DNA of 64,000 nt from an uncultured Acidobacteriota bacterium (GTDB lineage: Bacteria; Acidobacteriota; Terriglobia; UBA7540): positions 1,216,001 through 1,280,000 of the forward strand of contig CAWDSK010000005.1 of NCBI GenBank assembly GCA_963804995.1, in the 5' to 3' direction. A model generated the notes under the pieces. That model was given only the letters and a program-made list of their open reading frames with translations. It did no database searches and had not been told where the DNA came from. Every line of letters starts with the position of its first letter. Position 1 is the stretch's first letter. Positions 2,307 to 42,589 of this stretch are shown here, in pieces. Made by a program: the position numbers and the translations under genes.

Positions 2307-2384
2307 TTGACATTCGAAACACAAGGGAAGATCACCGTTCATTCCACGTCCCGATGGTAAACCACACCATTTATCCCAACTCCT

Positions 2385-5038: not shown

Positions 5039-5072
5039 GACTACCGAGTCTTACGGCGCCACAAGGGAGAGC

Positions 5073-6963: not shown

Positions 6964-7168
6964 TTACTCCACCACAGCCAATTGAACCTCGGGGCTTAGT
7001 GCTTACCCGGGCTCTTCCTGATCGACAACCATCATCAAAGCACCACCACCCATCGAGAACAAGCTCAGGCTCTTAAAGCCATCTACGAACATGCGATCGA
7101 TGAACGTCGCCGCGCCGGAAAGACCGTGAAATCACGGTACCCGGAAATCTCCCACTGGAGTGCCACAC

Positions 7169-8095: not shown

Positions 8096-8099
8096 TCAA

Positions 8100-9089
8100 A
8101 TGGCCCCTCTACTCACAGTTGGCATTCCCGTTTACAACGGCATGCCCTTCCTCCCGGAAGCAGTTGAGAGCATACTTAGCCAGCCTTTTGATGATTATGA
8201 GCTCCTCGTCATCAATGATGGCTCAACTGACGGCTCCTGGGATTACCTCAAATCTCTTCGCAACCCACACCTACGGCTGATCTCGCAGGACAACCGGGGC
8301 CTCACCGCAACATTGAATCGTATGCTTGAAGAGGCACGCGCCCCCTGGCTGGTAAGGCTGGACGCGGACGATGTCGCGTGCCCGAACCGCTTGCAACTCG
8401 TTGCCGAACACATAAACCGGCGGCCTGAAAGCGGAATGTTCTACTCGCGCGCCAGGCATCATCAACACGCCAGCGCCGTTTCCCTTGTACGTAGCACTGA
8501 AGCAACTTCATCAGAACTGCGTACCCAGACGCAAATGGGGTATTTATTATCGATCTGCCACTCCAGCGTGGTCTTGAATGTGCGGAAGGCACTATCGCTC
8601 GGCGGCTACCGGTTCAATCTGCAAATTGAGGATGTCGACCTGTGGTGGCGCATGGCCTTGACCTACGAAATGATTTTTATACCCGAAATTACTGTGGCTT
8701 ATCGCCTTAATGCGGGTAGCATTTGCGCCATACACCTGGGTGAGCTTGAATCCCACACACTTTTCGTACAGTACCTGCTTTTGTCGCAACTATGGAATGT
8801 GAAACCCCTCCCCTACATCCAGGTTCAGCCAGTCTTGCAGTCCTTCCTCCACCGGCGAAGGTTGATCTATCGCGAGCAAATGTGGCGGGCTGCCATATTA
8901 CTTAGTGCCCGGAAGTATGGACAAGCAGCGGGCCGTATGGCGGTTGCGGCATGCATCGCTCCAATTCGTTTTCTCCAGCGGACCCTTTATCCTCTACACC
9001 GGCCTTCAATGATCAGGATTGGCGAACCGCCTCAGGCTTTTCGAAGAATGCGCGGCCAACTCTGGCCAACGTCCGCCATCGAGGATTAA
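8100..9089 (+). CDS. Glycosyltransferase family 2
   Basis: IPVYNG, INDGSTD, RLDADD, IEDVDLW. Confidence 0.9.
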   Translation: MAPLLTVGIPVYNGMPFLPEAVESILSQPFDDYELLVINDGSTDGSWDYLKSLRNPHLRLISQDNRGLTATLNRMLEEARAPWLVRLDADDVACPNRLQLVAEHINRRPESGMFYSRARHHQHASAVSLVRSTEATSSELRTQTQMGYLLSICHSSVVLNVRKALSLGGYRFNLQIEDVDLWWRMALTYEMIFIPEITVAYRLNAGSICAIHLGELESHTLFVQYLLLSQLWNVKPLPYIQVQPVLQSFLHRRRLIYREQMWRAAILLSARKYGQAAGRMAVAACIAPIRFLQRTLYPLHRPSMIRIGEPPQAFRRMRGQLWPTSAIED

Positions 9090-9321
9090 GGTTAGCCTCG
9101 TTCCCCCTGAGAATTCCAATGAGTTGAGGTCAGAGGAAATACTATGATTTGCAAGCCAGCACGCCGAATCAGAAATTCCGTCACGGGACGCCTGGAGTTT
9201 ATCAGCCATTCGAAACTCAACCGCGGCGAAACGGAGTGTCGCGACTCACCTGGACGATTACACTCTTGCGTAATTCTTTTGAATGAATCTTGTTGTTGGG
9301 TAGCGCCTCCAGGGGAGGCCT

Positions 9322-10554
9322 ATGGCACTTGACACATCCCGCCCCAGACTCCCGGCTTTGACCGGTCTGCGGTTTTTTGCCGCACTCTACGTCGTTTTGT
9401 TCCACTTGAAGGCAACGAGAATTGCTTTCCAGAGCGGTTTGGCCGGTTCAATCATACAGTTGGGCTATACCGGTGTGAGCCTGTTCTTTGTGCTCTCCGG
9501 ATTCATCCTTGTTTACACCTACCAGGGACGGGGCATGCCACTTGGACAGTTCTTCCGGGCACGATTTGCCCGCGTTTATCCCGCCTATGCCTTCTCGCTG
9601 GTCGTGATGGCGCACGCCTTTTATCGTGGTATGTACTTCTTTAAGCCCGTACGCCTGACCTGGGGTGCATCCCATCCTCTAGTCTCAACGCTGAGTGTGC
9701 TCACGCTGGTGCAATCGTGGATTCCACTGGGAGCGTCAGCTTGGAACAACGTCGCGTGGAGCCTCTCCGTCGAAACATTCTTTTACTTGGCCTTCCCTTT
9801 CGTTTTAAGTTGGTTGGGGCGCCGCAACAAGTCTCATATCTTTCAATTACTGCTCCTTTTCTGGCTGGCCAGCCTTGCTGTTTCCACCAGCTACGTGTTG
9901 TTGAAGCCGGACGGCCTGGGGCTGACTGATTCGAGCGTGGTAAATGCGACGTGGCTGAACGTGGTCAAGTTCAATCCCTTGGCGCGGCTGCCAGAGTTTC
10001 TCATGGGTATGTGTGGCGCCATGCTGTTTCTGCGAAACGCAGTCAGCCGGAAGCTCGCTACCCCGTTGGTGCTGGGAGCATTGGCCGGACTCCTGGCGGT
10101 TGCCTATTTTTCGCCGGCGATTCCCTATCCGATTCTCCACACCGGATTATTGAGCGGTATCTTCGCCGCTTTGGTCTATGGTCTCGCTTTGGGTCCGAGT
10201 TGGACGAAATTCCTAAATGCCCGCATCCTGGCGGTCCTCGGGGATGCGAGTTATAGTCTTTATCTGCTGCACAACTACGTGCTGACACACATTCTCGTGC
10301 GGGAGCAGGGCCGCCTCCTGCATACCTCGGTGCCGTGGGTCGTTCTGGCGGTGGCGGTGGCGGTCGCCATGGCCATTGGCGTCTACGAATTCGTTGAGGA
10401 ACCGCTGCGGCGCAAACTGAACCCGCGCCGGCATCCAGGCCAAGTGGCGCAAGCCCAACCGGCCGAAGGAAAACGGCCCGCCATATCTGGCAGGTCGGGC
10501 GATAAACCCGTCGATGGCAACTCCCCTGGTTGCCTGGTTTCGAGCGGCGGGTAG
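9322..10554 (+). CDS. Acyltransferase family 3 (OafA/ExoZ-like)
   Basis: LTGLRFFAA, GVSLFFVLSGF, RFARVYP, WSLSVE, LGDASYSLYLLH, YEFVEEP. Confidence 0.92.
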   Translation: MALDTSRPRLPALTGLRFFAALYVVLFHLKATRIAFQSGLAGSIIQLGYTGVSLFFVLSGFILVYTYQGRGMPLGQFFRARFARVYPAYAFSLVVMAHAFYRGMYFFKPVRLTWGASHPLVSTLSVLTLVQSWIPLGASAWNNVAWSLSVETFFYLAFPFVLSWLGRRNKSHIFQLLLLFWLASLAVSTSYVLLKPDGLGLTDSSVVNATWLNVVKFNPLARLPEFLMGMCGAMLFLRNAVSRKLATPLVLGALAGLLAVAYFSPAIPYPILHTGLLSGIFAALVYGLALGPSWTKFLNARILAVLGDASYSLYLLHNYVLTHILVREQGRLLHTSVPWVVLAVAVAVAMAIGVYEFVEEPLRRKLNPRRHPGQVAQAQPAEGKRPAISGRSGDKPVDGNSPGCLVSSGG

Positions 10555-11092
10555 CTGGTAGCAGAACCTCATGTTAGTCTTCCCCTCTCTCCTTAGGAAT
10601 CGATCCCCAATAACATGTCCAGTTATGGAACACTTTCAGGCCCATTCGTACAGTGTGTCCAAGCTTCTCAGCCCTATCATTGAATTCTAACGGCTTGTAT
10701 ATCAGTGCGTTAATGAATTCTTTCGAAATCATCACAGATGGTGAATAACGTGCTCCTAGGGTAGGTGGGCACGAAATAGTTTACCGGATTTGCAAAACCT
10801 TTCGGCAGGGGCTCACGGCTAACTGAGCATGGCGAAGCCCTGCAATAATCCCCACAAGACGAGAGAAGGCCATCGAGTCGGCGTTCAATATCGAATGTCC
10901 CTTTCTGCATTGGCCCAGTGCTCACCTATTCACAGGAAAATGCTCATCCCGTCGGGGCCGCCGGAGTTTCGCTCATAAGTGCGAAACACTTCAACCTGCG
11001 TAGGCATGGACAACCTTAATCCAAAGTTCCACGTTCGGCCCATTAATTCAGTTCACGACAAGATTGAACGGCCGGTTTTCGAGGCGACAAAC

Positions 11093-11932
11093 ATGTCAAC
11101 CCAATTAAGCGTTACGCTCAACGCGGGCCTGACGCCCTCCAAGAGCGTGGATATCTGCCACGCTCATGTAAACATAACAACAATGCCGCATGCGGTTGCT
11201 CTTATTTCCAATTATGCGGCAACGTCGCCAGGACCGGCCTACGTTGTCACTCCCAATGCCCAGCATGTGGTCCTTCTCGAGAAAGATCAGCATTTCCGCG
11301 AGATTTACTCCCATGCCAGCTTGGTGCTACCGGATGGATTTTCCCTCCTACTTGCGGCCCGGCTTTTTGGAAAGAGATTGAAGGAGCGGGTGACCGGTGT
11401 GGATCTATTTCAGGCGCTCTGTGGACGTGCGGCAGAGATGGGATTGAGAGTTTATCTCATGGGCGGTCAGCCCGGCTCGGCGGCCCTCGCCGCCAGAAAG
11501 TTGAAGGGGGCATACCCCAATTTGATTGTGGCCGGAACCTATTGCCCAGCCTGGGGGTTTGAGAACGATTCGAGGCAGTTGGATGCCATGGCACGCATGA
11601 TCCGTAAAGCCAAGCCGCACATTCTGTTTGTTGGCCTCGGGGCACCCAAGCAGGAGAATTGGATCTACGAGCATGGTCTAAAGCTTGGCGTTCCAGTTTG
11701 TATGGGCATCGGGGGGTCGTTCGAGATGGTTGGGGGGATTACCACGCGAGCGCCACGGTGGCTGCAACGAGTGGGTTTGGAGTGGCTGTTCAGACTGGCG
11801 GTGGAGCCGCGCCGCATGTGGAAGCGTTACCTGATCGGAAACGTACAATTCATGGCCTTGGTTTTCGGGCAATTGCTGCACCCGACCCTCTACGAAGGAA
11901 ATGCGTGGCCTGCGGTAGGGGGGCGGCAATGA
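11093..11932 (+). CDS. WecB/TagA/CpsF family glycosyltransferase (GT26)
   Basis: VVTPN, PDG, RVTGVDL, FVGLGAPKQE, GLEWLFRL..EPRRMWKRY. Confidence 0.93.
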   Translation: MSTQLSVTLNAGLTPSKSVDICHAHVNITTMPHAVALISNYAATSPGPAYVVTPNAQHVVLLEKDQHFREIYSHASLVLPDGFSLLLAARLFGKRLKERVTGVDLFQALCGRAAEMGLRVYLMGGQPGSAALAARKLKGAYPNLIVAGTYCPAWGFENDSRQLDAMARMIRKAKPHILFVGLGAPKQENWIYEHGLKLGVPVCMGIGGSFEMVGGITTRAPRWLQRVGLEWLFRLAVEPRRMWKRYLIGNVQFMALVFGQLLHPTLYEGNAWPAVGGRQ

Positions 11933-13074
11933 CCAGGCGTGATGTGTTCAAACTTGCCCTCACGACGTGTGGCATAGCCGCGTGCGCGCACAGCCTGGAA
12001 CTGGCATCCCCTACGGCCGCTGTGACAGGAGTGGATTCATCCCATGCTTGGGGGTCGCTGCGAGAAATTGCGGCTTCCCGTGGGATCCTTTTTGGGTCGA
12101 TGGTACTGAAGAAAACGTTGGCTACGGATCCGAAATATACCGATCTGGTGGCACAACAATGCGGAATCATTGTGCCGGGACATGAGTTGAAGTGGGACGC
12201 GCTTCGTCCTGCACCCGACCAGTTTGATTTCTCAGAAGGCGATTGGATCGAACAATTCGCAAGGTCACACGGGATGCTGGTTCGCGGCCACACGCTGGTG
12301 TGGGAACAAGCCCTGCCTAAATGGTTCGCGACAACCGTCAATCTGGAGAACGCCAGGCGAATGTTGCTCAGCCACATATCTACGGTTGTCGGTCATTATG
12401 CGGGGCAAATGCATTCCTGGGATGTCGTGAACGAAGGCATCCAGATTGAGGATGGACGAGCTGATGGATTGAAAGTTACGCCCTGGCTTCTCTATCTCGG
12501 GCCCGAATACATTGACCTGGCCTTCCATGCCGCCCACCAAGCTGATCCGAAAGCGATGCTGGTCTTTAACGAAAACCGGATTGAGGCTGAAAACTCCGCG
12601 GCCGAGCGAAAACGGCAAGCCGTGTTGTCCCTGCTGACCCGTCTTGTCAGGAGAGGTGTTCCGATCCATGGTTTGGGAATTCAATCGCATTTCCCTGCGG
12701 AGACGGATGTGGCGGGGCCTGGTTTCAAGAGGTTTCTCCATGCCATTGAAGATCTGGGCCTCTCGATCCTGGTCACAGAAATGGATGTGTTCGATAACCT
12801 ATTGCCTGGAGACATCGCTATCCGAGATGGTCTGGTGGCCAAGCAATATTACAACTACCTCTCGTTCATTCTTCAATTCAAGTCAGTGAAAGCAGTGCTC
12901 ACCTGGGGTTTGAGCGACGTTTCCACCTGGATCACAATAGCCAGCCCGCGCGGAGACGGCCTGCCGGTCCGGCCACTGCTCTACGACGCCGAACTGCAAC
13001 CCAAGCCCGCGTTTGCCGCGGCCTGGCATGCGTTTAACGAAGCGCCCAAGCGCAGATGGGACGCTTCCAAATAG
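11929..13074 (+). CDS. Tat-exported glycoside hydrolase family 10 (endo-glycanase)
   Basis: MTRRDVFK twin-arginine leader; ELKW, RGHTLVW, WDVVNE (acid/base), GIQSH, VTEMDV (nucleophile). Confidence 0.9.
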   Translation: MTRRDVFKLALTTCGIAACAHSLELASPTAAVTGVDSSHAWGSLREIAASRGILFGSMVLKKTLATDPKYTDLVAQQCGIIVPGHELKWDALRPAPDQFDFSEGDWIEQFARSHGMLVRGHTLVWEQALPKWFATTVNLENARRMLLSHISTVVGHYAGQMHSWDVVNEGIQIEDGRADGLKVTPWLLYLGPEYIDLAFHAAHQADPKAMLVFNENRIEAENSAAERKRQAVLSLLTRLVRRGVPIHGLGIQSHFPAETDVAGPGFKRFLHAIEDLGLSILVTEMDVFDNLLPGDIAIRDGLVAKQYYNYLSFILQFKSVKAVLTWGLSDVSTWITIASPRGDGLPVRPLLYDAELQPKPAFAAAWHAFNEAPKRRWDASK

Positions 13075-13273
13075 TCGAGCGTTTGACGGGCGTCCGTCCC
13101 TTTGACCCCACGAGCGGTGGCATCCAATGAACCCATCGGAAGTGAGCGATCCGACGAGCTTTTGATCAAACACCCGGTGGTTAAAAGTAGTGTCTCCCGG
13201 GTCATGGAGTGCGTCTGCCGGCTGTCCAAGTTTTCAGAAGGAATTCCGTTAACAAAAAAGCGAGGTACCTGAG

Positions 13274-15596
13274 ATGTCTGACAATATTGTGCCGACGAGC
13301 GACCCGCAAAATGAGGATCGTCCGCCTTCCACCATTGTGCCGAGAGTGACACCGGTTTTCGCCAACAGCGAGCCTGTGGCAGAGGTTTCCTTTGCTGAAA
13401 TCTGGCGCATTCTGGTGAAGCGAAAATGGATTATTGCGGCAACGACTTGTGGCCTATTCGCTATAGGCCTTGCCTATTGTTTGATGAGCACGCCGAAATA
13501 CGAGTCGACCTCGACAATTCAATTCAACAGAGAGAACTCAGACTCACTCATGCCTGGGGATACCCATGCGATGCTCGGTGACGCGACCGCGATGGATTAT
13601 CATGTGACGCAACAAACGCAGGTTGACACCTTAAAGAGCGACACGCTCGCTCTGCAGGTGATCCGCGACTTGAAGCTTGAGAACCGCCCTGAGTTTTCAC
13701 CTAAGCCCTTGTGGGACAGCTTCGCCAAGTACCCCGACGAGTCCCAATTGCCGTTGGAGAAAGCTACCCACCGGCGGGCGAGGGTTCTGAAGGCTTACCA
13801 CAATAACCTCCGTGTGGATGTAGTAGACGGTACCCGGATGATCAAGATTTCGTTCCTAAGTCCCGATGCCGAAGTGGCAGCCGCCGTGGTGAACTCACTG
13901 GTCAGCAATTACCAGGAGCAGCAATTCAGAACCCGTTTCGCGGCAACGGCGCAAGTCTCGGACCGGTTATCGAAGCAGCTTGATGACCTCAAAAACCAGG
14001 TGGCAGCCTCACAGGAGGAGTTGGTTCGGTACCAGAAACAAGCAGGTATTCTTGGGACCGATGAGACGCACAACATCGTGATGACACGGCTGGAAGAAGC
14101 TGATAAGCAGGTCGTTGCCGCTGAAGGAGACCGGATTCTTGCACAAGCCGTTTGGCAGTTGGCCAAGAGTGGGAATCCGGAGTTGATTTCCGACTTGGCG
14201 GCCATGTCTTCCGCAACCAAGTCGCTGACAAATCCAAACTCGAGGTTATTGATCGAGAGTCTGCGCACTCAGCAAAGCCAGCTCAAGCTGGAGTACGCCC
14301 AAGCGGCAGCAAAGTATGGTTCATCGTACCCGAAGCTCATGCAAATGCAGAGTGAGCTGAGCCAGCTCGATGAGAACATCCAAACCGAGATTCAGAACCT
14401 CGCCACTCGTGCGCAGAACAATTACCTCACGGCCCAGCAAACCGAAAACGCCCTGCGGGCTTCTTTCGAGCGCGCAAAAGAAGATGCGAACATACTCAAT
14501 GACAGGAACGTCCAGTACTCCATCATGAAACACGAAGTAGAGTCGAAACGCGATCTCTATGACTCATTATTCAAACAACTGAAGGAGGCGGGGGTGCTGG
14601 CTGGGCTGCGGTCAACCAATATCGTGACAGTTGACCCCGCAAGGCCATCTGACCGGCCTGCCAAGCCCTTCGTGGCGTTGAATCTTGCCATAGCCTTGTT
14701 TGGCGGGTTGTTGTTGGGAGTTACGGGCGCGTTTGTCGCTGAGAATTGCGACGACACGATCACAACACCCGACGATGCCGAGCAGATAACCCTGGTGCCA
14801 TCACTGGGGTTAGTTCCTCGATGGAAGTTTCGGAAGCCGCCACCGCTTGCAACGAAGTCGATTAGGCCCACTTCCTCAGCCCCGTCCAAGGCGGCGGCTG
14901 TGGTTCTGTCTAGGCCGCACTCACAAATCGCTGAAGCATACCGCATCGTGCGGACTTCGATTCTCCAGGCAAGTCGACGGGGCGCGAGTAATGTCCTCCT
15001 CGTTACCAGCGCCTTGCCGGAAGAGGGAAAAACTACAACAGCCCTGAACTGCGCGGCGGCGCTCGCTCAGCAAGGTCAACGGGTACTGTTGGTTGAAGCC
15101 GACATGCGGCGGTCAAATCTGGAAAGCAAGTTGAATTTGAATGGCTGCGGAGGATTAAGCTCCCTCATCGCGGGTGGAACATCATCTATCGCGCCGGTGA
15201 AGATTCCCCTCCCTGCCGAACCTGTCGGTAATTCCTGCCGGTCCGCGGCCCTCCAATCCGGCCGAATTGCTGGGCTCGCCGCGCATGGCGGAACTTGTCC
15301 AGGAGTGGCGCTCGAACTATGACTTCATCATCCTGGACACGCCTCCAGTATTGTCAGTTACGGATGCAGTCGTTGTTTCCGCCCATTGCGATGCCGTGAT
15401 TCTTGTTGTCCGGTCTGGGGTTACAACGAAACAATCCCTCATTCGTGTCCGTGACCTCTTCATGCGATCGCGCAAACGGATTGCAGGCGTCGTCATGAAT
15501 GCCTTCGATCTGAAGTCTGTCGACCACTACCTGTACCTGGGGTATAAGTCCAATCCGAAGGACGGGCGTGGGTACTACAGCTCAGATGTCAATTAA
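13274..15596 (+). CDS. wzc: Wzc/GumC polysaccharide co-polymerase with BY-kinase domain; one extra C near 15206-15209
   Basis: Two TMs, coiled coil, TSALPEEGKTT Walker A. After the shift: NPAELLGS, IILDTPP and a Tyr-rich tail. Removing one C from ATTCCCCTCC restores KIPSLPNLSVIPAG. Confidence 0.88.
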
Positions 15597-15616
15597 AACA
15601 AAGAGGAGCATTTCCC

Positions 15617-16622
15617 ATGAGATTCATTTCACCGAGATTGATTTGCCGATTTTCCTTCTTGTTGACAATGACAGTTGCCTGCCTTGCGGGCGCTCGTGCT
15701 GAAGCAGGTCAAACACCGACTTCCCCCCGTGCTGCCGGCAGCCTGAATGCGACCCGCACCGCAAATGGTCCCGCGGAGGGAACGGCGCGCGAAGCCAGGG
15801 TGAAGATCGGACCGGGGGATCTGATCGAAGTGAATGTCTTCGATGAGGCGGAATTGCAGCAGACCATTCGACTCAACGATCTGGGAGACGGAACCCTCAG
15901 TTTCATCGGCAGCGTGCACCTTGCCGGGCTGACAACCGACCAGGCTGAGGCCCTTATTGCACGCAAACTGAAGGAGGGAAACTACCTCCTTGCCCCCCAA
16001 GTGGCAGTAATGATTCGTGAGTACAGTACTCAGGGGGTATCCGTATTGGGCGAGGTGAAAACACCTGGGGTTTACGGAGTAGTGGGGGGCCAGAGCTTGT
16101 TGGATGTTCTCGCTGCCGCAGGTGGAACAACACCCCTGGCAGGTGCCGAAATCACTATCCAGCGCGCCGGCGACGCCTCCACCCTTACTGTCCTTTTATC
16201 GAAAGATGCTCACCAGTCACTTTCGTCCAATGTACGGCTTTATCCCGGAGACAAGGTCATCATTCCGCGCGCCGGTCTGGTGTATGTACTGGGAGAAGTT
16301 GGCCGGCCAGGCGGGTTTGTCATGGAGAATGACGGGAAAATCACCCTGTTGCAAGCGCTCGCCATGGCGGGTGGAACCACTCACACTTCCAGCATGAATG
16401 GTTCGAGGCTTCTCCGCAAAGGACCTTCAGGCTACACGGATATTCATATAGAACTGAATAAGATGCTCAAAGGCCAAGAAGGGGACGTCCAACTACAGGC
16501 AGGAAGATATTCTGTATGTCCCCGGTAGTGCCATGAAATCCGCATTCGCCCGAGCCGTACCCGCGGTGTTGGCTGCATCCAGCGGCGCCGCAGGCGCGGC
16601 CGTATATCATATTACTTACTGA
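15617..16622 (+). CDS. wza: Wza/SLBB polysaccharide export protein; one extra G near 16502
   Basis: IGPGDL Poly_export motif and two SLBB repeats. Removing one G from GCAGGAAGAT gives LQAEDILYVPG...YHITY, TGA at 16620-16622. Confidence 0.85.
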
Positions 16623-16769
16623 GTGGAGAGGCTTGCCGGATAGCCTTCCGTTCCCCTGAGCCCCTGTAAAGGTCCCGTAAGGCGGAGTGAGCTGGTTACA
16701 GCACTGAACTCTGCCCTTCACGGTCCCAATGCCGTACGGTCCTGCAACAGCCCTCAAGCAACAACTCAT

Positions 16770-17672
16770 ATGGAAAGCATCTCGTGCATTTTCTGTGGTG
16801 TTGATGACTCGTTTCCGGTCATCCATGAGAACGGCTACACGGGAAGGAAGTGCCGCCGGTGCGGACTGATCTTCATCTCACCACGCCCCAGTCGTGAAGA
16901 TATCAGAAACCTCTATGCAGACGACCAAGCGGTTACTTCCTCCCAATGTCAGTTCGCCGCCGAGGCCTATAAGCGCCTCCATGCCCGGTTCACCATGAAG
17001 ATCCTGCGGGGGTATGCAAGCGGGGGAAAACTGCTGGAGATTGGTCCGGGGGGCGGTCTGTTTATGGACCAAGCCAGGGCGGATGGCTTCAAGCCTTGCG
17101 GTGTCGAACTCAATCTCATCCACGCCGAGTACATCCGAAACCGATGGGGACTTCCCTGCGAGTCTCGACAGTTAAGTGATGCATTTCCTGGTGAAATATT
17201 CGATGTTATTTATCATTGCGACGTGATCAGCCATTTGTATAACCCCTGCACTGAATTCAAGATCATGAGAGAACGCCTCACACCGCAGGGGATATTGATC
17301 TACGAAACAGGAAACATGGGTGATGTGCGTCCCGACCGGCTGGCCATGATCCCTCGATTTCAGTATCCTGATCATTTGTTCTTCTTCAGTTCCCGCAACC
17401 TTGAGTCGTTGCTGCAGTTATCGGGCTTTCGTCCGGTGCGTCAGTTCCGATTCTCAACGGTTCCCGAATTGCTGCTCCGTAAGGCCGTTTCAAGGTTCAA
17501 GTGCCGAAGAAATGGATCAAACGTCGCAGCTCCACGAGGAACGGATTCTGCCTCTTCCTCATTGTGGGTAAAATCTCGGATTGCCATGTTTGCCCGGTAC
17601 CGATTAGGCGCCTATCTCCCCATACCGGACCATCATCAGACGATCATTATGATCGCCAAGCCCAAACAGTAG
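16770..17672 (+). CDS. Class I SAM-dependent methyltransferase with N-terminal Zn finger
   Basis: CxxC...CxxC, LLEIGPGGG motif I, FDVI..DVISH, PDHLFFFS. Confidence 0.85.
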   Translation: MESISCIFCGVDDSFPVIHENGYTGRKCRRCGLIFISPRPSREDIRNLYADDQAVTSSQCQFAAEAYKRLHARFTMKILRGYASGGKLLEIGPGGGLFMDQARADGFKPCGVELNLIHAEYIRNRWGLPCESRQLSDAFPGEIFDVIYHCDVISHLYNPCTEFKIMRERLTPQGILIYETGNMGDVRPDRLAMIPRFQYPDHLFFFSSRNLESLLQLSGFRPVRQFRFSTVPELLLRKAVSRFKCRRNGSNVAAPRGTDSASSSLWVKSRIAMFARYRLGAYLPIPDHHQTIIMIAKPKQ

Positions 17673-27695: not shown

Positions 27696-28178
27696 CCCGT
27701 AGTATCCAAATACTGGATCCTTTTGAAAGCGCAGATGGATAGTGAATCCGCTGACAGCGGGTGCGGGGGTGTCATGACACTTTGCCGCCGTGTTACGCTG
27801 ACACGATGCGCCCGACGTTGGATTCCTTTCGACTGCTGCTGATTTCCCTCGCGGGCTGGCTGAACCCCCAGCAGCAAGACGTCATCGACTACCTCCAGGA
27901 AGAGAACCGAGTTCTTCGGGAACAACTCGGCGATCGATGGCTGCGCCTGAACGACGACCAGCGCCGGCGTTTGGCAGTCAAGGCCAAGAAACTGGGCCGC
28001 AGGGTGCTGCACGAACTGGCCACCCTCGTTACGCCGGAGACGCTCTTGGCTTGGTGCCGCAAGCTCATCGCCCGGAAATACGATGGCAGCCAGCAGCGTG
28101 GCCCTGGTCGTCCGCGCACCCCAAACGAGATCCAACAGTTGGTGGTCCGCATGGCCACCGAGAACCGCGCTGGGGGCT
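27696..28178 (+). mobile_element. Truncated second copy of the rve IS
   Basis: Near-identical to 18318-18800, breaking at GCGCTGGGGGCT. Confidence 0.9.
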
Positions 28179-28994
28179 TATGTCGCGACACCCATCGAGG
28201 TCGCAGGAGCTTATACGATTTTCGCCGATCGCGGTGAGTACGTCGCACCCCGGTGCATTGTGGCCGTCGCCGACGCCCACGGCCGCACCGTTTGGAACAA
28301 TCCTGTCAGCGCCCGCCGGGTGCTTGATTCGCGCGTCAGTTATTTGATGGTGAGTTTGCTCGAAAGCGTCATCAACAACGGCACTGGGGCAGGCGTGAGG
28401 GCCCGTGGCTTCAACCTTCCTGCCGCAGGGAAGACCGGCACTTCACATGACGGCTGGTTTGCCGGATTCACCTCGAACCTCCTCGCCGTGGTTTGGGTTG
28501 GCTACGACGACGACCGCGACCTGAAAATGACCGGCGCGCAGTCCGCTCTGCCCGTCTGGGCCGAATTCATGAAGCGGACGACTGAATTATCCCTTTACAA
28601 GACCTCACAACCCTTCAATAAGCCTGAAGGGATAGAGATGGCCGAGATTGACAATCTCACCAACCTTGTAGCGCTCGCCGATCCAATCTTGACGCACAGC
28701 GAGGTGTTCATTGCGGGTACGGAGCCGTTCCCACCCGTTCAGCAAGAACCAGCGGACATAGCTCTGGGGCCGCTGGGCTACCCCTCGACTACACTGGCGA
28801 GGAAGGAATCACCGCAGCGGGCGGACGGGATTGTCCTGATTTCCGACGCGCAGGGGCATAAGGTTTACGTCAATGGCGGAGACCTGCTCTCCCCCCGGCC
28901 CGAGCATCGGCTCGCGCCCGCTTGCCCCCACCCCGCCCTCGGTGGCTTGATAGGAATCGCAGGTGCGACCGACGCTCAAGCTTGTCCAAATTAG
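28167..28994 (+). pseudogene. Class A penicillin-binding protein transpeptidase C-terminal fragment
   Basis: [35 protein letters not shown]...VWVGYDD. Confidence 0.85.
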
Positions 28995-29174: not shown

Positions 29175-30596
29175 TCATCGTGCTCTTAAGAGCGCGCTCG
29201 AATCCGGCCGAGTACCAGTGACTTCAATGCCGTAGGTATCGCCAAGCGCGATTAGTTCCGGAAACTGACATTCGGGGTGGCAGGGTTTGAACTCTGGAGG
29301 TTCCATGTGGCTCCCGACGAAGTGGTAGAGTTGCGCCCCTGGGTTGGACAGATTCAATGGGGCCAGGGTCAGCGCAAGCATTTGAAGCATCTGCATGCTG
29401 GCGCAGGACATCGAAAAAGCAAAAACGTTCTCTCGGACTTTTAAGGGATGGTCGTTAAGCAAGCCTTCAATGTAAGTGGGGTCGTCGAGGAACCCCTCGC
29501 GTTCGGCTTGAACTAGCCCGGGATCGTACTGCCGGTGGCATTGCAAGCAACGGCGTCCGATTGTCGCTGTGTGCGCTTTCCAGTCGGCTGCGACCAGCTT
29601 CCCGAAACGATTGGTTCTGACGCCGATTCCGCCGTCAATGACCGGTATCAGGTGAGCGTAGGCGATGAGGTTCAAGACGTAGCGGCCCCATGGTCGATCC
29701 ACACACGAAAAGATAACATCACTATCGAGCGCAGCGCGAAAGCCATCTTCCTCATAGACGGCGGCTGCAACGGGATCAGGGCGGAAGCGCTTCGTCGTTG
29801 CCCGCGCCGATAGATGCTCGGTCTCAACGTCGACCTTGAGGCGGCCAATGTCCTTTCGGGTGGCATAAACCAGCCGGTCCAGGTTATGCCGTTTGACATG
29901 GTCGAAGTCAATCAAGATTATGTTTTCGAAGCCGGTGCGAGCTAACGCCTCAGCGACCATACCGCCGACACTTCCGGCACCCACGATCGCGATTCGGAGC
30001 CGGACAAGATCAGTGTGTGCCTGCTCACCCCATGCAGATACGGTTCGGACCTGCTCCTCACTGGATTCTGGGGGCCTTGCCAACCTATCCATGTAGGTAA
30101 CCATAAGGCGCTCGCCGACTATACGCACAGTGGCGCAGTGCCGCCGCAGGTAGGTCCGAGGGGCGCTCCGCTCCCAGAACCTGGCGCTCCAGGCGCCATC
30201 GCCGGCCAAGGTTAAACCTACAAGCGGAAGCCGCGTGGCGCCGAAGACCGCAGGGGCGAGACTCTGCTCGGTTGTGATGTCATCGAAGCTCATCCCCTGC
30301 CACTTGATTCCGTTGGGATGGCTGTGCATGAGTGCAAGCCCACCAGCTTCAGACGTGGCCTCAGCTAGTGCCCGCTGAAAGAAGACCGTCTCAAGACTGG
30401 CATTGCCGTGAATGTTGCGATCTCCGTTGCCTGGAAGAATGAGACGTTTGACCAGCGCGGTTTTCCGCTCCCGTCCCCTGCTCGGGCACCATATGGCGAA
30501 GCAGAGGTCTTCCTGACCGTCCCAGCGTAGGAGGTGGTCGCGAGCGACTTGATTGATCGCCGTTGTCATTGCGGAACTGTGTGCGGCACGGCTCAT
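29175..30596 (-). CDS. JAB-peptidase + ThiF/E1 fusion (BubCD-like)
   Basis: N-terminal QE...HSHP...S..D JAB motif; GAGSVG, DFD.VKRHNLDR, SCVD, CLQC and C-terminal CHPEC; ATGA-coupled to the upstream gene. Confidence 0.88.
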   Translation of the reverse strand: MSRAAHSSAMTTAINQVARDHLLRWDGQEDLCFAIWCPSRGRERKTALVKRLILPGNGDRNIHGNASLETVFFQRALAEATSEAGGLALMHSHPNGIKWQGMSFDDITTEQSLAPAVFGATRLPLVGLTLAGDGAWSARFWERSAPRTYLRRHCATVRIVGERLMVTYMDRLARPPESSEEQVRTVSAWGEQAHTDLVRLRIAIVGAGSVGGMVAEALARTGFENIILIDFDHVKRHNLDRLVYATRKDIGRLKVDVETEHLSARATTKRFRPDPVAAAVYEEDGFRAALDSDVIFSCVDRPWGRYVLNLIAYAHLIPVIDGGIGVRTNRFGKLVAADWKAHTATIGRRCLQCHRQYDPGLVQAEREGFLDDPTYIEGLLNDHPLKVRENVFAFSMSCASMQMLQMLALTLAPLNLSNPGAQLYHFVGSHMEPPEFKPCHPECQFPELIALGDTYGIEVTGTRPDSSALLRAR

Positions 30597-31414
30597 TGGG
30601 TTTCCCATAAGGAATAGATGTGGCTCATATAGGCAACCGTCGTCTTCTTGCTGGTTGCCCAGTCTGGGTATGGGCGCGACCAGTACTCCCAATCTCCGCC
30701 CGTACCCTGCTGGAAGGCTCCTGACTGCGATTCGTGGACGCCTCCTAGCGGATGGCCAACGTCGGCGGCGGGGTGAGCAGGATAGATACGTGGGGAGACG
30801 TGGGGACCGGTCGGTGTAGTCATGGGAAAATCGGACGGCACGACGAAGCCTAGTCGCACCGAGCGGCCGCTGAAGCGACCGCTCGGAACGGGGTAATCAA
30901 GAACGACGTGGTTGGGTTTACCCTGCAGAAGCTTCGGGTTATATCCCATTGCGCGTAGCCCGTCCAAAAAGACCTCGACGCCAGTGAGGATCGGACCGTA
31001 AGAAACGGGTTTCGGCCCCGTGGAGACGATCTGAAAGTTCATGCAGTTGTGCATTTTGATTGGCACGCCGCCTTTACCCTGGTAACTCTCGGTATGGCCG
31101 GCAATGATCTGAACGAGATAGTGGTCTGCAGGGTCTTTCTTGCCGAACTCCACAATGATTTGGTTCGGGGTAAGCTCGTGTTTTGTTGTCTCGCAGGGCT
31201 CACCGTCAACTTCGAAATGAATTTCCTGGTGGTGGTGCTCCTCTGCTTCGTGAATCTCTTGCGCTGCCGCCTCAATTTCACGTGCGGCGATTTTTTCAGC
31301 TCCTTGCGCGGCTGTCAGATCTGCTTCCGCCTGCTGTAAGTGCGCCTCTGCCATCTGGAGCTCAGTGCGTGTATCCCGGCCCTCATTCCTGCTAACATCT
31401 TGATTTTCTGGCAT
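30593..31414 (-). CDS. Coiled coil + ubiquitin-like (multiubiquitin) + E2/UBC-like fusion
   Basis: Ala/Glu heptads; IHFEVDGE...LTPNQI...YLVQ...F..VSTGPKPVS beta-grasp; then VPSDFP..P.GPH...WEYWSRP E2-like domain with no Cys; RBS AAGGAG. Confidence 0.78.
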   Translation of the reverse strand: MPENQDVSRNEGRDTRTELQMAEAHLQQAEADLTAAQGAEKIAAREIEAAAQEIHEAEEHHHQEIHFEVDGEPCETTKHELTPNQIIVEFGKKDPADHYLVQIIAGHTESYQGKGGVPIKMHNCMNFQIVSTGPKPVSYGPILTGVEVFLDGLRAMGYNPKLLQGKPNHVVLDYPVPSGRFSGRSVRLGFVVPSDFPMTTPTGPHVSPRIYPAHPAADVGHPLGGVHESQSGAFQQGTGGDWEYWSRPYPDWATSKKTTVAYMSHIYSLWETQ

Positions 31415-31479
31415 GTTATTCTCCTTTTTCGTACCGGTGGTAGACCCGCCTTCAATACTCAATCGGTTTGGCCGGAGTT

Positions 31480-31501
31480 TTTCGGCCACCGGTGGCCGAA
31501 A
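31480..31501. promoter_or_regulatory. Perfect 22-bp palindrome in the divergent promoter region
   Basis: TTTCGGCCACCGGTGGCCGAAA. Confidence 0.7.
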
Positions 31502-31556
31502 TTTCTTGGGTCGACCGACTAACTATTAGGGGTGTGACTTTCGGTTACTGAAAAGA

Positions 31557-32159
31557 ATGGCGGCAGGCACTTCACCTCGGAACCCGGAGACGATCGATTG
31601 GCGGCTGCTGATGAAGCGACTGCATGGAGCTGCCGTTCGCCTCGTCGGCAGCAGCAACCGTTTGATCGATTGCGGGGGATCCTCCGCGAAGGACCTCGTT
31701 TCCGAGGTGCTTGAAGAGTTCTTTAACTCTCCGAATGGATGCGGCTGGGATGGCACCGAGGCTGGGTTGACCCGATTGCTGTGCAAAATGATTGAATACA
31801 GGTTTATCGACCACGTACGCCGTGACGGCAAGGTCGCGATCGACTCCGAAACCCCACTTGCGACCGCGATATGTCATGATTTAGGGCCCGACGAGCAAGC
31901 AGCCAGCGATCAACTGCGCAGTAGAATGTTCGATGCTGTGAAAGGTCACCCGAAGGAAGCCGAGTTACGGGACTTCATCCAAGCCGCGGCGATGATTAGC
32001 GATGGAAGTATGGTTGATAAACAGATGGCAGAGTTGCTCGAAATTAGGGTGGGCGAAGTGCGTAATCGTAGAAAGATGCTCCGGCGAATCGCCAGTATTC
32101 AACAGCTCGGAATTATTATGTTAGGCGGACCACATGAAGACAAAGAAGGGCAAGCATGA
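31557..32159 (+). CDS. ECF-like RNA polymerase sigma-70 factor
   Basis: Region 2-like SAKDLVSEV...WD...L..LLCKM..YRFIDHVRR; region 4-like MAELLEIRVGEVRNRRKMLRR. Confidence 0.7.
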   Translation: MAAGTSPRNPETIDWRLLMKRLHGAAVRLVGSSNRLIDCGGSSAKDLVSEVLEEFFNSPNGCGWDGTEAGLTRLLCKMIEYRFIDHVRRDGKVAIDSETPLATAICHDLGPDEQAASDQLRSRMFDAVKGHPKEAELRDFIQAAAMISDGSMVDKQMAELLEIRVGEVRNRRKMLRRIASIQQLGIIMLGGPHEDKEGQA

Positions 32160-32574
32160 GGCACTCGACCGCCAGTTGAAAGCGCTGTTCGGCGATCCGT
32201 TGTCGGTCGATACCTCGGAACTCGACAATATCAGCGAGGAAACCGGCGACGGTTCCGATCTCGTTCAGATCGCGTACGACCTTGCCGCTCGCGCGGCCCA
32301 ACAATCTCGCTTGGAAGGTAAACCCGTGCCGCCGCATGTTCAGACGGCTCTGGCTCAGATTAAGGAAGCCAACACGTTGGAAGGCGCGACTTCAGCCGAG
32401 CTTGCTGAGATCGTGGACTGGGTTCTGAAGCCGTTTCGCGGCCCGACTGAGAAGCTCGCGTTCAATCATCATCGGTTGACTGATAAGTCGGAGAAGGATG
32501 AGCGGCTGTTGCAGCAGTTGGGTGAGGAGGTGAAACAGGACTGGACAAAGGAGGATGAAAGTGAACGCGGTTGA
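32134..32574 (+). CDS. Small soluble protein, candidate anti-sigma / IrrE substrate
   Basis: 146-aa helical ORF overlapping both the sigma and peptidase genes; function inferred from position only. Confidence 0.6.
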   Translation: MKTKKGKHEALDRQLKALFGDPLSVDTSELDNISEETGDGSDLVQIAYDLAARAAQQSRLEGKPVPPHVQTALAQIKEANTLEGATSAELAEIVDWVLKPFRGPTEKLAFNHHRLTDKSEKDERLLQQLGEEVKQDWTKEDESERG

Positions 32575-33415
32575 AGAGCTCGCAGAGTTACTCGCAGAAC
32601 GGTTGGCACCAAACGGAGTACCCGATTTACCTTTCATCGCAGGTCAAATCGGCCTTCGGATTAGGGAAGTTGAAGCGGATGGCTTCGATGGTACGCTGGT
32701 GCGAGCGCAGGACGCTGCGAAAGGAATCATCGCGGTCAACTCCGCGATCCGTGAGTACACTCGCAAGCGATTTACCATCGGGCACGAAATCGGTCACTAT
32801 CTGATTCCGCATCACCGGGGGCTGCAGAACGTCTGCCGGTCCGACGACATCGAGCGATGGCATTCCGCCATTGCTACAACTGAGCGAGAAGCTAACCAGT
32901 TCTCGGCAGAGTTGCTCCTCCCTCGTAGGGTGGTCAGTCCTCGCCTCGGCTTAGATAATCCGTCGCTTCGGAGGATTAGCGAAGTTGCTCGCGAATTTTC
33001 AACCAGCCTATCTGCCACGATTTATCGGTATCTGGACCTTACTGAGCTGGCGTGCTGCATGGTTTGGAGCGAAAGCGGTCGAGCGAAGTGGTACGTACAT
33101 AGTGACAGCTTTTCGCTTCCCTTGCCCATCCAAGAACTGCCTTCGGCGGGATCTTGGGCCGCGAAACTATTTGCGGACCAACCAGTGCCCAATGATCTGG
33201 TAGAGGTTCCTTCCGACGCTTGGTTAAATCGGTGGGACACGAGCAGAGTCAGCCGGGTTCTCGAGCACTCCATTCCTCTTCCGTCGTACGGTGCCGTTAT
33301 ATCATTTCTGGAATTGGAGTTAGAGGCTTCGGAAAACCGCGAAGAAGAGGATGAAGCGCTCTTGCAGGAGTTGGACCCAAACAGATTCGACAGTCGCTCG
33401 CGGCGCAATCGCTGA
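32561..33415 (+). CDS. ImmA/IrrE (CapP-like) zinc metallopeptidase
   Basis: GFDGTL, RKRFTIGHEIGH (HExxH), EREANQFSAELLLP, F.TSLSA and a C-terminal GAF-like region. RBS AAGGAGG favours GTG 32561. Confidence 0.92.
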   Translation: MNAVEELAELLAERLAPNGVPDLPFIAGQIGLRIREVEADGFDGTLVRAQDAAKGIIAVNSAIREYTRKRFTIGHEIGHYLIPHHRGLQNVCRSDDIERWHSAIATTEREANQFSAELLLPRRVVSPRLGLDNPSLRRISEVAREFSTSLSATIYRYLDLTELACCMVWSESGRAKWYVHSDSFSLPLPIQELPSAGSWAAKLFADQPVPNDLVEVPSDAWLNRWDTSRVSRVLEHSIPLPSYGAVISFLELELEASENREEEDEALLQELDPNRFDSRSRRNR

Positions 33416-33560: not shown

Positions 33561-34649
33561 TTATACTCTACAAATGCTGGAATGCGTGAAGGCCCCGTGC
33601 AAAACACTCGCTACCGCAGCAGCTTTTGCCCATGCACTCTGATTTCTATCAAGCCTGAGGTCACAATATGATTGGGGTGGCCTCAAATCCGCTTGAAGTC
33701 CCAGCAGATACGAAATCTGTGAAATGGAAACAGGCTCTTTGTAAGGGAAAACGTTATCCAGTTCGATTGCGTTAACTTCTGCAGACTGACCTACGTAGGC
33801 CGAAAACTCGTCGCGAGTACATCCTAGACCTGCATGGAATCTCGTCCATATGGCCTCTGGAGTACCCTTGGTGATTGAGCACACGGTGGCTTCACCAACG
33901 AGCGCCTTTTGAGGGGTGGAGGAGTACAGCACCACCTTACAGCCAATCCATTTTTCCGAAAACTTCTTTCGGATTTCAACCATTTTGGAGCCGGAAAGGA
34001 TACGCTCCGCATACTGAGGTTTCATACTAACCAATAAGTCGCCTCCGAGAGAGTACCCACTCACATTGAATTTCCTCGCCAGCGCCGGCAGACGTTCTAA
34101 AGCGGCAAGGCGCACAAGCTTATGAGGCGCCGAACATATCAACTCGTCTTCCCCAGTGCGATATTGTCTCTCCGACTTGGCTGGCTGCATGAATCCGAAA
34201 GATTGGAAAAAGCTCGCTCTTGTCTCCCACAGGCTTTCTGGAAGAGTGAAGTGAATCTCCTTCGCGATATGCCTTGTCTCCAGAGTCATTTGGGTGAAGA
34301 AGAGCTGTCCGAGGTCCATATCTTGAAAATCGCGCTTGATTCGTAGATGGCAAAACTTTGCCTCTTTGCCTATCTTCAGAATCGCAGTCGCGATCGGCTC
34401 TTCGCCTTCGTATGCCACCCAGGCGGCTCGCTCAGAGGTTATTAGACCCGGAACAACCTTCTCTCGCAGCCACCGGTGAATGCCCGGATACATATCTTCG
34501 CTGGCGCCGACAAGGTTCATGAGTGTTTTTAGCTGGTCCGAATTAAGCCGAGCATCCGCCTTTCCCAGCTTCACGATCCTGAAATTTGCCGCCAGTGGAA
34601 ATAACGAATCGGATCGCTCATTTAATCGCTGCTTCAATATTGCCATCAT
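33561..34649 (-). CDS. GNAT acetyltransferase + ASCH (PUA-like) domain fusion
   Basis: YPGI.RWL..KV, IATAILK, KFCHLRI...FQDMDLG (GNAT); SMKPQYAERILSGSKMVEIRK...LYSSTP (ASCH GxKxxExR). Confidence 0.8.
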   Translation of the reverse strand: MMAILKQRLNERSDSLFPLAANFRIVKLGKADARLNSDQLKTLMNLVGASEDMYPGIHRWLREKVVPGLITSERAAWVAYEGEEPIATAILKIGKEAKFCHLRIKRDFQDMDLGQLFFTQMTLETRHIAKEIHFTLPESLWETRASFFQSFGFMQPAKSERQYRTGEDELICSAPHKLVRLAALERLPALARKFNVSGYSLGGDLLVSMKPQYAERILSGSKMVEIRKKFSEKWIGCKVVLYSSTPQKALVGEATVCSITKGTPEAIWTRFHAGLGCTRDEFSAYVGQSAEVNAIELDNVFPYKEPVSISQISYLLGLQADLRPPQSYCDLRLDRNQSAWAKAAAVASVLHGAFTHSSICRV

Positions 34650-34662
34650 TACCTCTCAGACG

Positions 34663-35841
34663 TTAAGTCCAATTTGCAAAGAAGTTCGAAAGCTTGAGAT
34701 CCTGGCTTCCGTAACCCTTTGCTTCTTCCTTTTGCTCTTCTTCGTTCAGTGTTGGTGCATCCTCTGACATCCGATAAAATATGAGATTAGCCATTTTCTC
34801 GCCGTTTGCAAGGCTAACCGGAACCTGATGGCCACGCACCTCAAATATCAGAGGAGTTCCCTTCTTTCCGTCCTCTCGGTAAAGACCGAAGTGGGGATGC
34901 ACGAAACCCGCATAGTGAATCCGCATCTCTCCCATTGTTTCATCGCTGGCGCGGCAATAGATCGCGATGCCTTTCGGCACGTGTAGCTTCTCCCTTGATC
35001 TCAATATGTAGAAAATGTCAGGCTCAATAACCAAGCGACTGTTTTTATCTACATGCTCAATGTCCCAATACGCGCTGGGGTCGGTCTTCTCATCCTGCTT
35101 CCAGAGTGGAACCGGACCGCGTATATCATTTGGAGCATCTACTCGCCTCGAACGAAATGCAACTCCCCGAATCGCGACTCCTTCAGAATCACCTATCGTA
35201 GCATTAGCCAGATTTACGGTCAGGCTTTCATTTCTGTGGCCGGTATCACGAAAAATAGTGTTAAACAATTCCGTTCCTCGAACGATTAGGTCATCGGGTT
35301 TGCCGTAGAAAAACCGAAGCTGACTAAGCGAGGTATTTGTCTTGACCCTTACATCAAACGTTATCGGGGTGATTTCGAGAAACATGTCCCCGGAGCCTTT
35401 TGATACGCGTGTGTCAAAGCATTCGTACGTCTCCATCCCGTCCACTATAAGGCGGGCAAGAACGTCCACGCGCCCGACTGAACTCTTGGCAGTCGCTTGT
35501 CCGTAAATCACCTGTGAGTTGCGCAACCCAGCTTCCAGTCTCTCCTGAAGCCTGAATACATATGTCTTTTGCCGTTTTAGGTCATAAATACCATCAGTGG
35601 GTTTGCGCATTTTCTGTGCAAGCTTATATTTCTCCGTAATGAACCAGCCGTATGGGCTCTGTGACGGTTTCACAGACCCTTCTAACATCTCGTACGCATC
35701 ATCGGCTAGCGAAAGGTCCATAGAGGAGTGGCCAATCTTGGGCCTCGATCCGGCGTGAGTGATGAACCCCTCGTCCACTAGTTTTCCCATTTGGGGTTTA
35801 TTTAATGCTCCCGGTGCCCATTCGTCCCACGGATATCCCAT
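34663..35841 (-). CDS. dcd: 2'-deoxycytidine 5'-triphosphate deaminase (two-domain DCD, dUTPase fold)
   Basis: SSMDLSL, AKSSVGRVDVLARL, LSQLRF, GEMRIHYAGFVHPHFG, FEVRGH, YGSQDLKLS; RBS AAGGAGG. Confidence 0.85.
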   Translation of the reverse strand: MGYPWDEWAPGALNKPQMGKLVDEGFITHAGSRPKIGHSSMDLSLADDAYEMLEGSVKPSQSPYGWFITEKYKLAQKMRKPTDGIYDLKRQKTYVFRLQERLEAGLRNSQVIYGQATAKSSVGRVDVLARLIVDGMETYECFDTRVSKGSGDMFLEITPITFDVRVKTNTSLSQLRFFYGKPDDLIVRGTELFNTIFRDTGHRNESLTVNLANATIGDSEGVAIRGVAFRSRRVDAPNDIRGPVPLWKQDEKTDPSAYWDIEHVDKNSRLVIEPDIFYILRSREKLHVPKGIAIYCRASDETMGEMRIHYAGFVHPHFGLYREDGKKGTPLIFEVRGHQVPVSLANGEKMANLIFYRMSEDAPTLNEEEQKEEAKGYGSQDLKLSNFFANWT

Positions 35842-36334
35842 TGAATTACGATCCCTCCTTGCAGGACTGTAAATCGCTCGGCTCCATAATGGGGCCGACA
35901 CCGAATTGAGACAAGCATCTTTTCGGCACGCATCGCCTAGACACTCCGCCTGACATAAAAATAAGAATATCTGATTCAGAGGGAAAATGGCGAATACAAA
36001 GCGAAACTAAGAATTCAAACTAAAAGTGCCATGTGTACCCAGGAGCTTGTCCCGGACGAGCTTGGGACGACGATTCTGCGTTGCGTCCAATGCTATCAGC
36101 CCAGCCTCGCGGTGTACGGTTTACCGATTCCCCGTCACTTGGTTGTATAGTCGCCAAACCGCTCCTCTGTTGTAGGCACCCGCTTAGAAACGTAGAAATC
36201 TGAACGCAGGCCGAGGATTGAGAGCGAGTCATCCTCATCGCCGCAGGCGGCTTTGGCTTTAAATATCATCGCCGCAGGCGCGTTCGGAGACGGCGGGATT
36301 TGGTAGGATGAGTTCCTGGAGATGTAAGAAGGAG

Positions 36335-42514: not shown

Positions 42515-42589
<75 letters not shown>

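Follow-up and report, generated by a model that had tools for sequence, protein, structure and literature searches.

The closest described relatives of the operon considered here are the Bub systems, in which a ubiquitin-like (Ubl) protein is handled by an activating enzyme (E1) and a conjugating enzyme (E2). The Type I system (6E.1) of Citrobacter sp. RHBSTW-00271 consists of BubAB, BubCD and BubE, with structures in PDB entries 9ea4 and 9eae (PMC11601596, Ye et al.). Its JAB peptidase cut the BubAB polyprotein after Gly229 in a 30-minute incubation with no trigger, and conjugation required E1 Tyr370 together with E2 Ser333 and His335 (PMC11601596). An operon class, 6e, with a fused or separate Cys-less E2 was described by Iyer et al. 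in 2006 (PMC1779556). Here, we analyze a two-gene operon of this kind, at positions 29175 to 31414 of the reverse strand in a 64,000-nucleotide stretch (hereafter, the window) of contig CAWDSK010000005.1 from an uncultured Acidobacteriota bacterium. Gene 1 encodes a coiled coil-Ubl-E2 polyprotein and gene 2 a JAB-E1 fusion.

With Type I Bub, the operon shares a Ubl-E2 fusion followed by a JAB-E1 fusion with intact residues, a crossover-loop Tyr in an E1 with no loop Cys, an E2 W-S-R serine in place of the catalytic Cys, a frequent link to CapP and variable Ubl N termini that include coiled coils (PMC11601603). Three defining features of Type I are missing, namely, BubE, the Gly end of the tag and the His/Asp helpers of the E2, which reads S-R-P with no Asp here versus S-R-H plus Asp in Type I. 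Counted from the Phe of the last Ubl strand (F127, so that Gly133 is F+6 and Ser138 is F+11), the tag would end in P-V-S at F+11, compared to Gly at F+10 in Type I. The E1 Tyr is furthermore shifted by about five residues, and the E1 falls on a separate branch, with the Ubl-E2 fusion restricted to a single sub-branch and probably of secondary origin.

Type II Bub (6E.2; BubA, BubBD and BubE of E. coli ZDHYS365) has in common with this operon the Tyr/Ser oxyester chemistry and a Ser-ended Ubl, the latter as an observation on our control loci, not as a published criterion, and with a tail of different length (F+8 versus F+11). It differs in its E2-E1 fusion, usually without JAB, in keeping BubE, in its Lys and His helpers and in its distant E1; neither a JAB-less E2-E1 fusion nor BubE is found at our locus. 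The Bil systems of Types I and II (BilABCD) likewise unite Ubl, E2, JAB and E1 in one operon, with a JAB that matures the Ubl and with no E3. They differ by using Cys thioesters and separate genes and by tagging phage tail proteins (summarized in PMC11601596), whereas the operon described here has a Cys-free E2 and no conserved loop Cys in its E1.

What is observed here comprises the layout of the operon, the folds of its products, catalytic residues that are intact, the absence of bubE, a changed E2 motif and an E1 on its own branch. We consider it probable that the two genes form a protein-tagging operon of the Bub type, on a branch apart that has no BubE, and that the tag is cut at Ser138 and relayed as an ester from Tyr375 to E2 Ser246. 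JAB processing, adenylation and the Tyr-then-Ser oxyester relay would be carried over, by homology, from the Citrobacter Type I system. In this scenario, the JAB of gene 2 would cut the gene 1 polyprotein after Ser138 and free the Ubl, whose C terminus the E1 would adenylate as in Citrobacter. The Ser-ended tag would then form an ester with Tyr375, move to Ser246 of the E2, activated by His221 or His205, and from there reach its target; the JAB may also take the tag off again, in place of BubE.

The initial annotation, made from the window alone, had proposed Cys-independent Tyr/Ser chemistry and JAB processing of the Ubl-E2 polyprotein. Both proposals were right, here by homology, but since Ye et al. 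show experimentally the JAB cut of BubAB and the Tyr/Ser relay, they amount to the published mechanism of Type I Bub (PMC11601596). The general design, polyprotein processing with no cysteines, is already published. The initial annotation missed the actual differences, namely, the absence of BubE, a different E2 site and the neighboring CapP module. In the literature searched, no account of a JAB-E1 branch that lacks BubE or has a Ser-ended tag came up; the journal version of Ye et al. and the rest of Table S1 may bear on this.

Gene 2 (29175 to 30596, reverse strand) encodes a BubCD-like fusion of 473 amino acids; it overlaps the gene 1 stop codon as ATGA and is translationally coupled to gene 1. 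The JAB/JAMM peptidase domain (30093 to 30596) has an intact set of E29, H91, H93, S103 and D106, and the E1 adenylation domain (29217 to 30074) contains GxGxxG, R241, the zinc cysteines C350, C353, C439 and C443 and the crossover-loop Tyr375 (29472 to 29474). Citrobacter BubCD is the top match in sequence, over the whole length (E 7.5e-24; profile 7e-40), and also in fold (Foldseek 1.7e-34; Z-score 39.9, root mean square deviation [rmsd] 3.1, 428 residues aligned), the next family reaching a Z-score of 26.1. An alignment of 72 rows, comprising the gene 2 product and JAB-E1 proteins from 71 of the 75 related loci introduced below (three broken genes and one truncated were left out), shows E29, H91, H93, D106, R241, C350, C353 and Y375 (DDPTY) to be invariant, and the loop of gene 2 (residues 354 to 391) contains no Cys. 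These data bear out the initial reading of gene 2 as JAB plus ThiF with a Tyr and no obvious catalytic Cys in the loop. Two cysteines were considered as the catalytic residue and rejected: C398 lies just after the loop and is kept in only 38 of the 72 rows, and C298, a motif residue, occurs in Citrobacter BubCD as well. Y375 has the same Y-I-x-G motif as Citrobacter Y370; a point against equating the two is that Y375 comes about five residues sooner in the loop, its partner in the profile alignment being Y362 instead.

That the operon belongs to a sulfur-carrier (ThiS/MoaD-like) or other metabolic system, and not to protein tagging, could be argued from the ThiF Pfam match of the E1 and its weak MoeB/ThiF NCBIfam matches. 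The latter are, however, all far under cut-off, BubCD fits far better (the Z-scores of 39.9 versus 26.1), and the operon includes an E2, lacks a Gly-Gly end, shows a patchy distribution and lies alongside CapP, which leaves this explanation very improbable. PADLOC gave only generic E1-E2 matches for gene 2.

Gene 1 (30593 to 31414, reverse strand) encodes a BubAB-like polyprotein of 273 amino acids, preceded by a Shine-Dalgarno sequence, AGGAG (31421 to 31425, reverse strand), 6 nucleotides before the ATG. Its assignment draws on AlphaFold2, VIA-align and 79 homologues. The AlphaFold2 model (predicted local distance difference test score, 91; predicted template modeling score, 0.56) consists of a 50-residue helix, a beta-grasp domain and a UBC fold. 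The N-terminal helix (residues 11 to 60; 31235 to 31384), a predicted coiled coil with 11 of 14 a/d positions apolar, is accessory and occurs in about 20 of the 74 loci; among coiled-coil Ubls reported elsewhere, one of two tested formed a dimer (PMC11601603). The beta-grasp Ubl domain (residues 63 to 132; 31019 to 31228) aligns to a bacterial multi-Ubl (9d5b_A; Z-score 11.3, rmsd 1.4, 67 aligned), and 7 of 77 homologues have Multi_ubiq matches. After the tail G133-PKPV-S138 (31001 to 31018), whose Ser138 (31001 to 31003) is the putative mature C terminus and JAB cut site, follows a Prok-E2_E-like E2 (residues 139 to 273; 30596 to 31000) with no Cys and with W245-S246-R247, in which Ser246 (30677 to 30679; WSRP) is the candidate nucleophile and His221 and His205 are conserved. 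The UBC fold spans residues 141 to 273, and its top match is Citrobacter BubB (9eae_C; Z-score 10.4, rmsd 3.5, 114 aligned, by VIA-align over 145 to 273), the next E2 reaching a Z-score of 9.2. Sequence searches of gene 1 against solved structures returned nothing useful, Foldseek gave no match at E ≤ 0.001, so that the BubB assignment depends on VIA-align, and PADLOC had no match.

The Ubl and E2 lie in one frame with no stop between them. A sequencing error that masks a stop at Tyr139, whose TAC codon is one base off a stop, was considered and rejected: close homologues that have Asn or His at this position carry the fusion as well, and the next Met comes only at residue 155. The coiled coil, beta-grasp and Cys-free WSR-bearing E2 of the initial annotation hold up in the model, in the structural alignments and in the sequence; both predicted folds were obtained, the assembled sequence has no stop, and 27 of 74 loci show the fusion.

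Those loci come from a species-genome scan that yielded 75 loci, collected with patterns containing WSRP or FQ...GPxP. Together with the window, 74 have a Ubl (two were lost at contig ends), split from the E2 in 47 and fused in 27, two of the fused being frameshifted further on. Ser occupies F+11 in all 74 tails and Gly F+6 in 69; in the other five, E, A, T, K or R stands in place of Gly. In 35 of the 47 stand-alone Ubls (27 distinct tails) the stop follows the Ser directly, and the other 12 carry variable extensions of 1 to 5 amino acids. A broader set comprised 150 diverse representatives of 611 matches at E ≤ 0.001, with the Phe of the last strand placed by a tail-free model; these representatives were ranked by a profile that included the tail, stop positions not being part of it. 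Among its 117 stand-alone Ubls, 82 end at F+11 and none earlier, the final residue is Ser in 82 and Gly in 3, and 19 are without any tail Gly. In several split loci, moreover, Ubl and E2 lie in frame as PVS-stop-x-x-x-Met/Val, parallel to the fused linker PVS-D/N/Y-G-P-I/M. As this in-frame E2, three codons past the stop, matches the fused linker, the fused form looks as if the stop behind Ser had been lost.

In the structural register, F127 takes the position ten residues before BubA Gly229, and Gly133 is the counterpart of ubiquitin residue 73, four residues before the Gly229 position. Type I control Ubls (L079 and L102) end in Gly at F+10, and all seven Type II controls (L104, L110 and L113 to L117) end in Ser at F+8. 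By conservation and register, Gly133 appears too short and Ser138 is the likely end of the tag; we regard a JAB cut after Ser138 as highly probable. The Ser end was also considered as a unique feature of the branch and rejected as such, as BubA of E. coli Type II ends in Ser too (PMC11601596, Table S2). Since that protein formed conjugates in vitro, the chemistry of a Ser end is supported, but the Ser end is also less new. No remark on the Ser end of Type II Ubls was found in the preprint text consulted (PMC11601596).

Two observations weigh against Ser138: Gly133 is itself well conserved (75 of 77 homologues), and Ser138 lies one residue past the longest characterized tail (F+11 compared to F+8 to F+10). 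In another hypothesis, the operon retains ordinary Type I chemistry, the JAB cuts after Gly133, a conserved PxPVS propeptide is discarded, and the cut acts as an activation switch. Type I JAB does cut after Gly (PMC11601596), Gly is found at F+5 to F+7 in 126 of 149 representatives in addition to the 69 of 74 loci, and the JAB is intact even where the Ubl ends in Ser-stop, as expected if a propeptide were always removed. On the other hand, the Gly tolerates the five replacements listed above while the Ser is invariant, tail Gly is missing in the 19 stand-alone Ubls and in the plasmid relatives with an Ala end (L077 and L078), none of the stand-alone Ubls stops at F+6, and a tail to F+6 falls short of the characterized ones. 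We therefore judge this hypothesis unlikely, and the cut "probably after Gly" of the initial annotation finds no support in tails that so often stop after an invariant Ser.

Some relatives vary the tail or its neighbors. In two actinobacterial plasmids (L077 and L078) and in L125, all nested in the branch, the Ubl ends in P-V-A without a tail Gly and the E2 motif is H-S-R-D or M-S-R-P. A haloarchaeal plasmid (L080) carries a Ubl ending in Ser at F+11, an E2-like gene and a JAB-E1 with no bubE and is sister to the branch (support, 99/84).

Because the patterns used to collect the 75 loci contained WSRP or FQ...GPxP, counts of the E2 motif in that set would be circular, and they were made again on sets gathered without reference to the motif, for the E2 site on 77 homologues. 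There, Ser246-Arg247 is present in 75, the other two being gapped (75 of 75 ungapped rows). Ser246 pairs in alignment with the Ser of WSRH in L079, a listed Type I BubB. WSRH itself occurs in none of 13 readable fused representatives. His221 is found in all 77 homologues and His205 in 70, and the chances are about even that one or both of these residues substitute for the Type I His/Asp helpers. A difficulty for Ser246 as nucleophile is that position 248, the equivalent of Type I His335, is Pro in 72 of 77 and never His, and the Asp299-equivalent column (position 202) has Asp in none of the 77; because both helpers invariant in Type I are missing, Ser246 may be poorly reactive.

An extreme form of this objection would make the E2 a dead adaptor, the tag moving from E1 Tyr375 straight to the target or to other tags, or being only adenylated. 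The E2 has neither of the Type I helpers nor the Lys that Type II carries two residues past the Ser, and family-E E2s were at first predicted to be inactive (PMC1779556). The strict conservation of S246-R247, along with that of His221 and His205, nevertheless resembles an active site, and Types I and II already employ different helpers around the same Ser (PMC11601596). A dead E2 thus seems improbable to us, and we retain the relay through Ser246. A different combination is seen in L107 and L108, which have a Gly-ended Ubl, a Cys-keeping E2 (PDCFW), a JAB-E1 whose loop contains a Tyr and lacks Cys, an unassigned gene of 500 amino acids and then a DUF6527 gene; these operons possibly use a mixed Tyr-ester/Cys-thioester relay.

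With respect to BubE, a PF20137 search of the 92%-complete host genome gave nothing over cut-off, and a hidden Markov model (HMM) of BubE built from 19 control loci gave nothing at E < 10 in any of 79 test loci. At least 600 bp of sequence follow the operon in 73 of the 75 fetched loci, and no gene conserved downstream of the operon across loci was found. DUF6527 occurs elsewhere in the genome for 14 of 75 loci, most being incomplete assemblies. The published Bub list was built from DUF6527-containing operons (PMC11601596), and a BubE-less branch would consequently have been missed by it. Directly after the JAB-E1, four loci (L007, L009, L010 and L051) share a gene of up to about 1,030 amino acids, with a gap of a few bases in at least three and an N terminus that is caspase-like by eye.

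The E1 tree, which has no external root, contains 62 rows, 44 of them from the 72-row alignment and 18 from controls and further loci. All 48 PVS/PVA members share one branch (support, 100/97), outside which lie BubE-bearing Type I (70/87) and Type II (100/100), and the fused members lie within one sub-branch (97/82), together with four split loci. With Type II as the outgroup, the fusion looks secondary, as judged from a tree without an external root and with a long-branch warning at the Type II join. A third fusion pattern was noted in a Thermoplasmata metagenome-assembled genome, where the E2 is fused to the JAB-E1 in a single frame of 618 amino acids (L065, 6236 to 8092).

The missing bubE could in principle be a local accident, a Type I operon having merely lost the gene here through an adjacent rearrangement. 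After gene 2, the local context is indeed disrupted, with a fragment of a penicillin-binding protein and other debris. However, bubE is missing at all 79 loci, nearly all fetched loci extend well past the operon with no conserved downstream gene, and the branch is separate from BubE-bearing Type I, so that this explanation is largely refuted and stands as extremely improbable. The fragment itself (28083 to 28994, forward strand) is the pseudogene-like C-terminal part of a class A penicillin-binding protein and converges on gene 2.

As the JAB is fully conserved even where no trimming of the Ubl is needed, and as BubE is absent, we moderately favor the view that the JAB doubles as tag remover in place of BubE. 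The Citrobacter JAB, which seemingly did not remove conjugates (PMC11601596), speaks against this.

Upstream of gene 1 lies a divergent module on the forward strand. The intergenic region (31415 to 31556) has a 22-bp inverted repeat (31480 to 31501), partly conserved in two related loci. It is followed by a sigma-70-like gene (31557 to 32159; TIGR02937, E 6e-6, a weak match under the family cut-off), a gene for a 146-amino-acid protein in the CapH position (32134 to 32574), possibly an anti-sigma factor, and a gene for a CapP/IrrE-type M78 peptidase (32555 to 33415; PADLOC capP, E 1.3e-52; PF06114). The 146-amino-acid protein has no Pfam, PADLOC or NCBIfam match and no detectable helix-turn-helix family, and its Atlas clusters, at 0.85 to 0.86 and thus below 0.9, are all unnamed. 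The same sigma-like/partner/CapP arrangement occurs in L002 and L020 and is annotated on plasmid L077, and a self-seeded HMM placed an IrrE/CapP-like peptidase upstream in 61 of 74 loci. A scan for promoters and terminators stayed at chance level (4 versus 2.0 and 4 versus 4.8). Another upstream arrangement was seen in 11 loci, mostly from Bacteroidota (L043, L053, L057, L059 to L063, L066, L067 and L072), with a different divergent protein of about 205 amino acids, sigma-like by eye, and an IrrE-type peptidase nearby.

CapH and CapP drive adjacent operons on DNA damage (10.1101/2022.04.27.489752; PMC13373217), and 24 cases with a sigma-70 gene were noted in cyclic-oligonucleotide-based antiphage signaling systems (CBASS) (10.1101/2022.04.27.489752). 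Our locus shares with CapH+CapP the divergent CapP peptidase upstream of the operon, which PADLOC recognizes, and has a sigma-70-like gene where those CBASS cases have a sigma-70 gene; it differs in that the gene in the CapH position is without a detectable helix-turn-helix family. By analogy, we lean toward a transcriptional switch that the sigma-like/partner/CapP module would operate on DNA damage, in preference to one that lies in the cut; the sigma match under the family cut-off and the putative role of its partner count against this. The initial annotation had instead presented proteolysis as an activation switch, a proposal that we find weak. The cut is unlikely to be an on-switch because the enzyme is produced along with its substrate, because the majority of relatives (47 of 74) are unfused, and because the Citrobacter JAB cut BubAB with no trigger (PMC11601596). 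Cleavage is probably routine maturation.

In its boldest form, our model depicts a third Bub type that spans many bacterial phyla and was missed since cataloguing went via bubE. A JAB-E1 would mature, write and erase a PVS tag, with a JAB that cuts after Ser and a third kind of E2 site (Ser-Arg with His221/His205), in the smallest, two-gene Bub circuit, which at our locus a private sigma factor released by CapP would switch on. We hold the case for and against this full picture to be evenly balanced.

The operon is patchily distributed, being present in 2 of 28 other genomes of the same genus and in 4 of 60 relatives. It lies in a mobile and defense-rich region (17953 to 52280) with a group II intron maturase remnant, an AIPR/AbiU-like gene, a TOTE primase fragment, AbiEi with a truncated AbiEii, IS21, IS66, a tRNA-Gly (42515 to 42589) and a type I restriction-modification system. 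Patchy presence and a mobile region with AbiE, the AIPR/AbiU-like gene and type I restriction-modification fit a defense or stress response, and we find such a role reasonably likely. An antiphage function, as first suggested, is plausible; against it, no Bub operon protected E. coli from phage in the preprint (PMC11601596), which a 2026 paper repeats (PMC13373217).

Bub is without an assigned target or phenotype, and the two-gene BubE-less branch provides a simpler test system. Its expression seems to depend on a CapP switch, which may explain why operons can appear silent once cloned. A JAB able both to cut after Ser and to remove the tag would, like a third type of serine site in an E2, widen the known chemistry of ubiquitin-like conjugation.

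Beyond CapP, a GNAT-ASCH gene (PADLOC PDC-M11B-like) and a dCTP deaminase-like gene (33561 to 35901, reverse strand) form a pair that is also beside the operon in L015 and may travel with the cassette. The first part of the window (969 to 17669) holds a surface-polysaccharide cluster with a flippase, a Wzy-like protein, glycosyltransferases, Wzz and an export protein, including a GH10 glycosidase.

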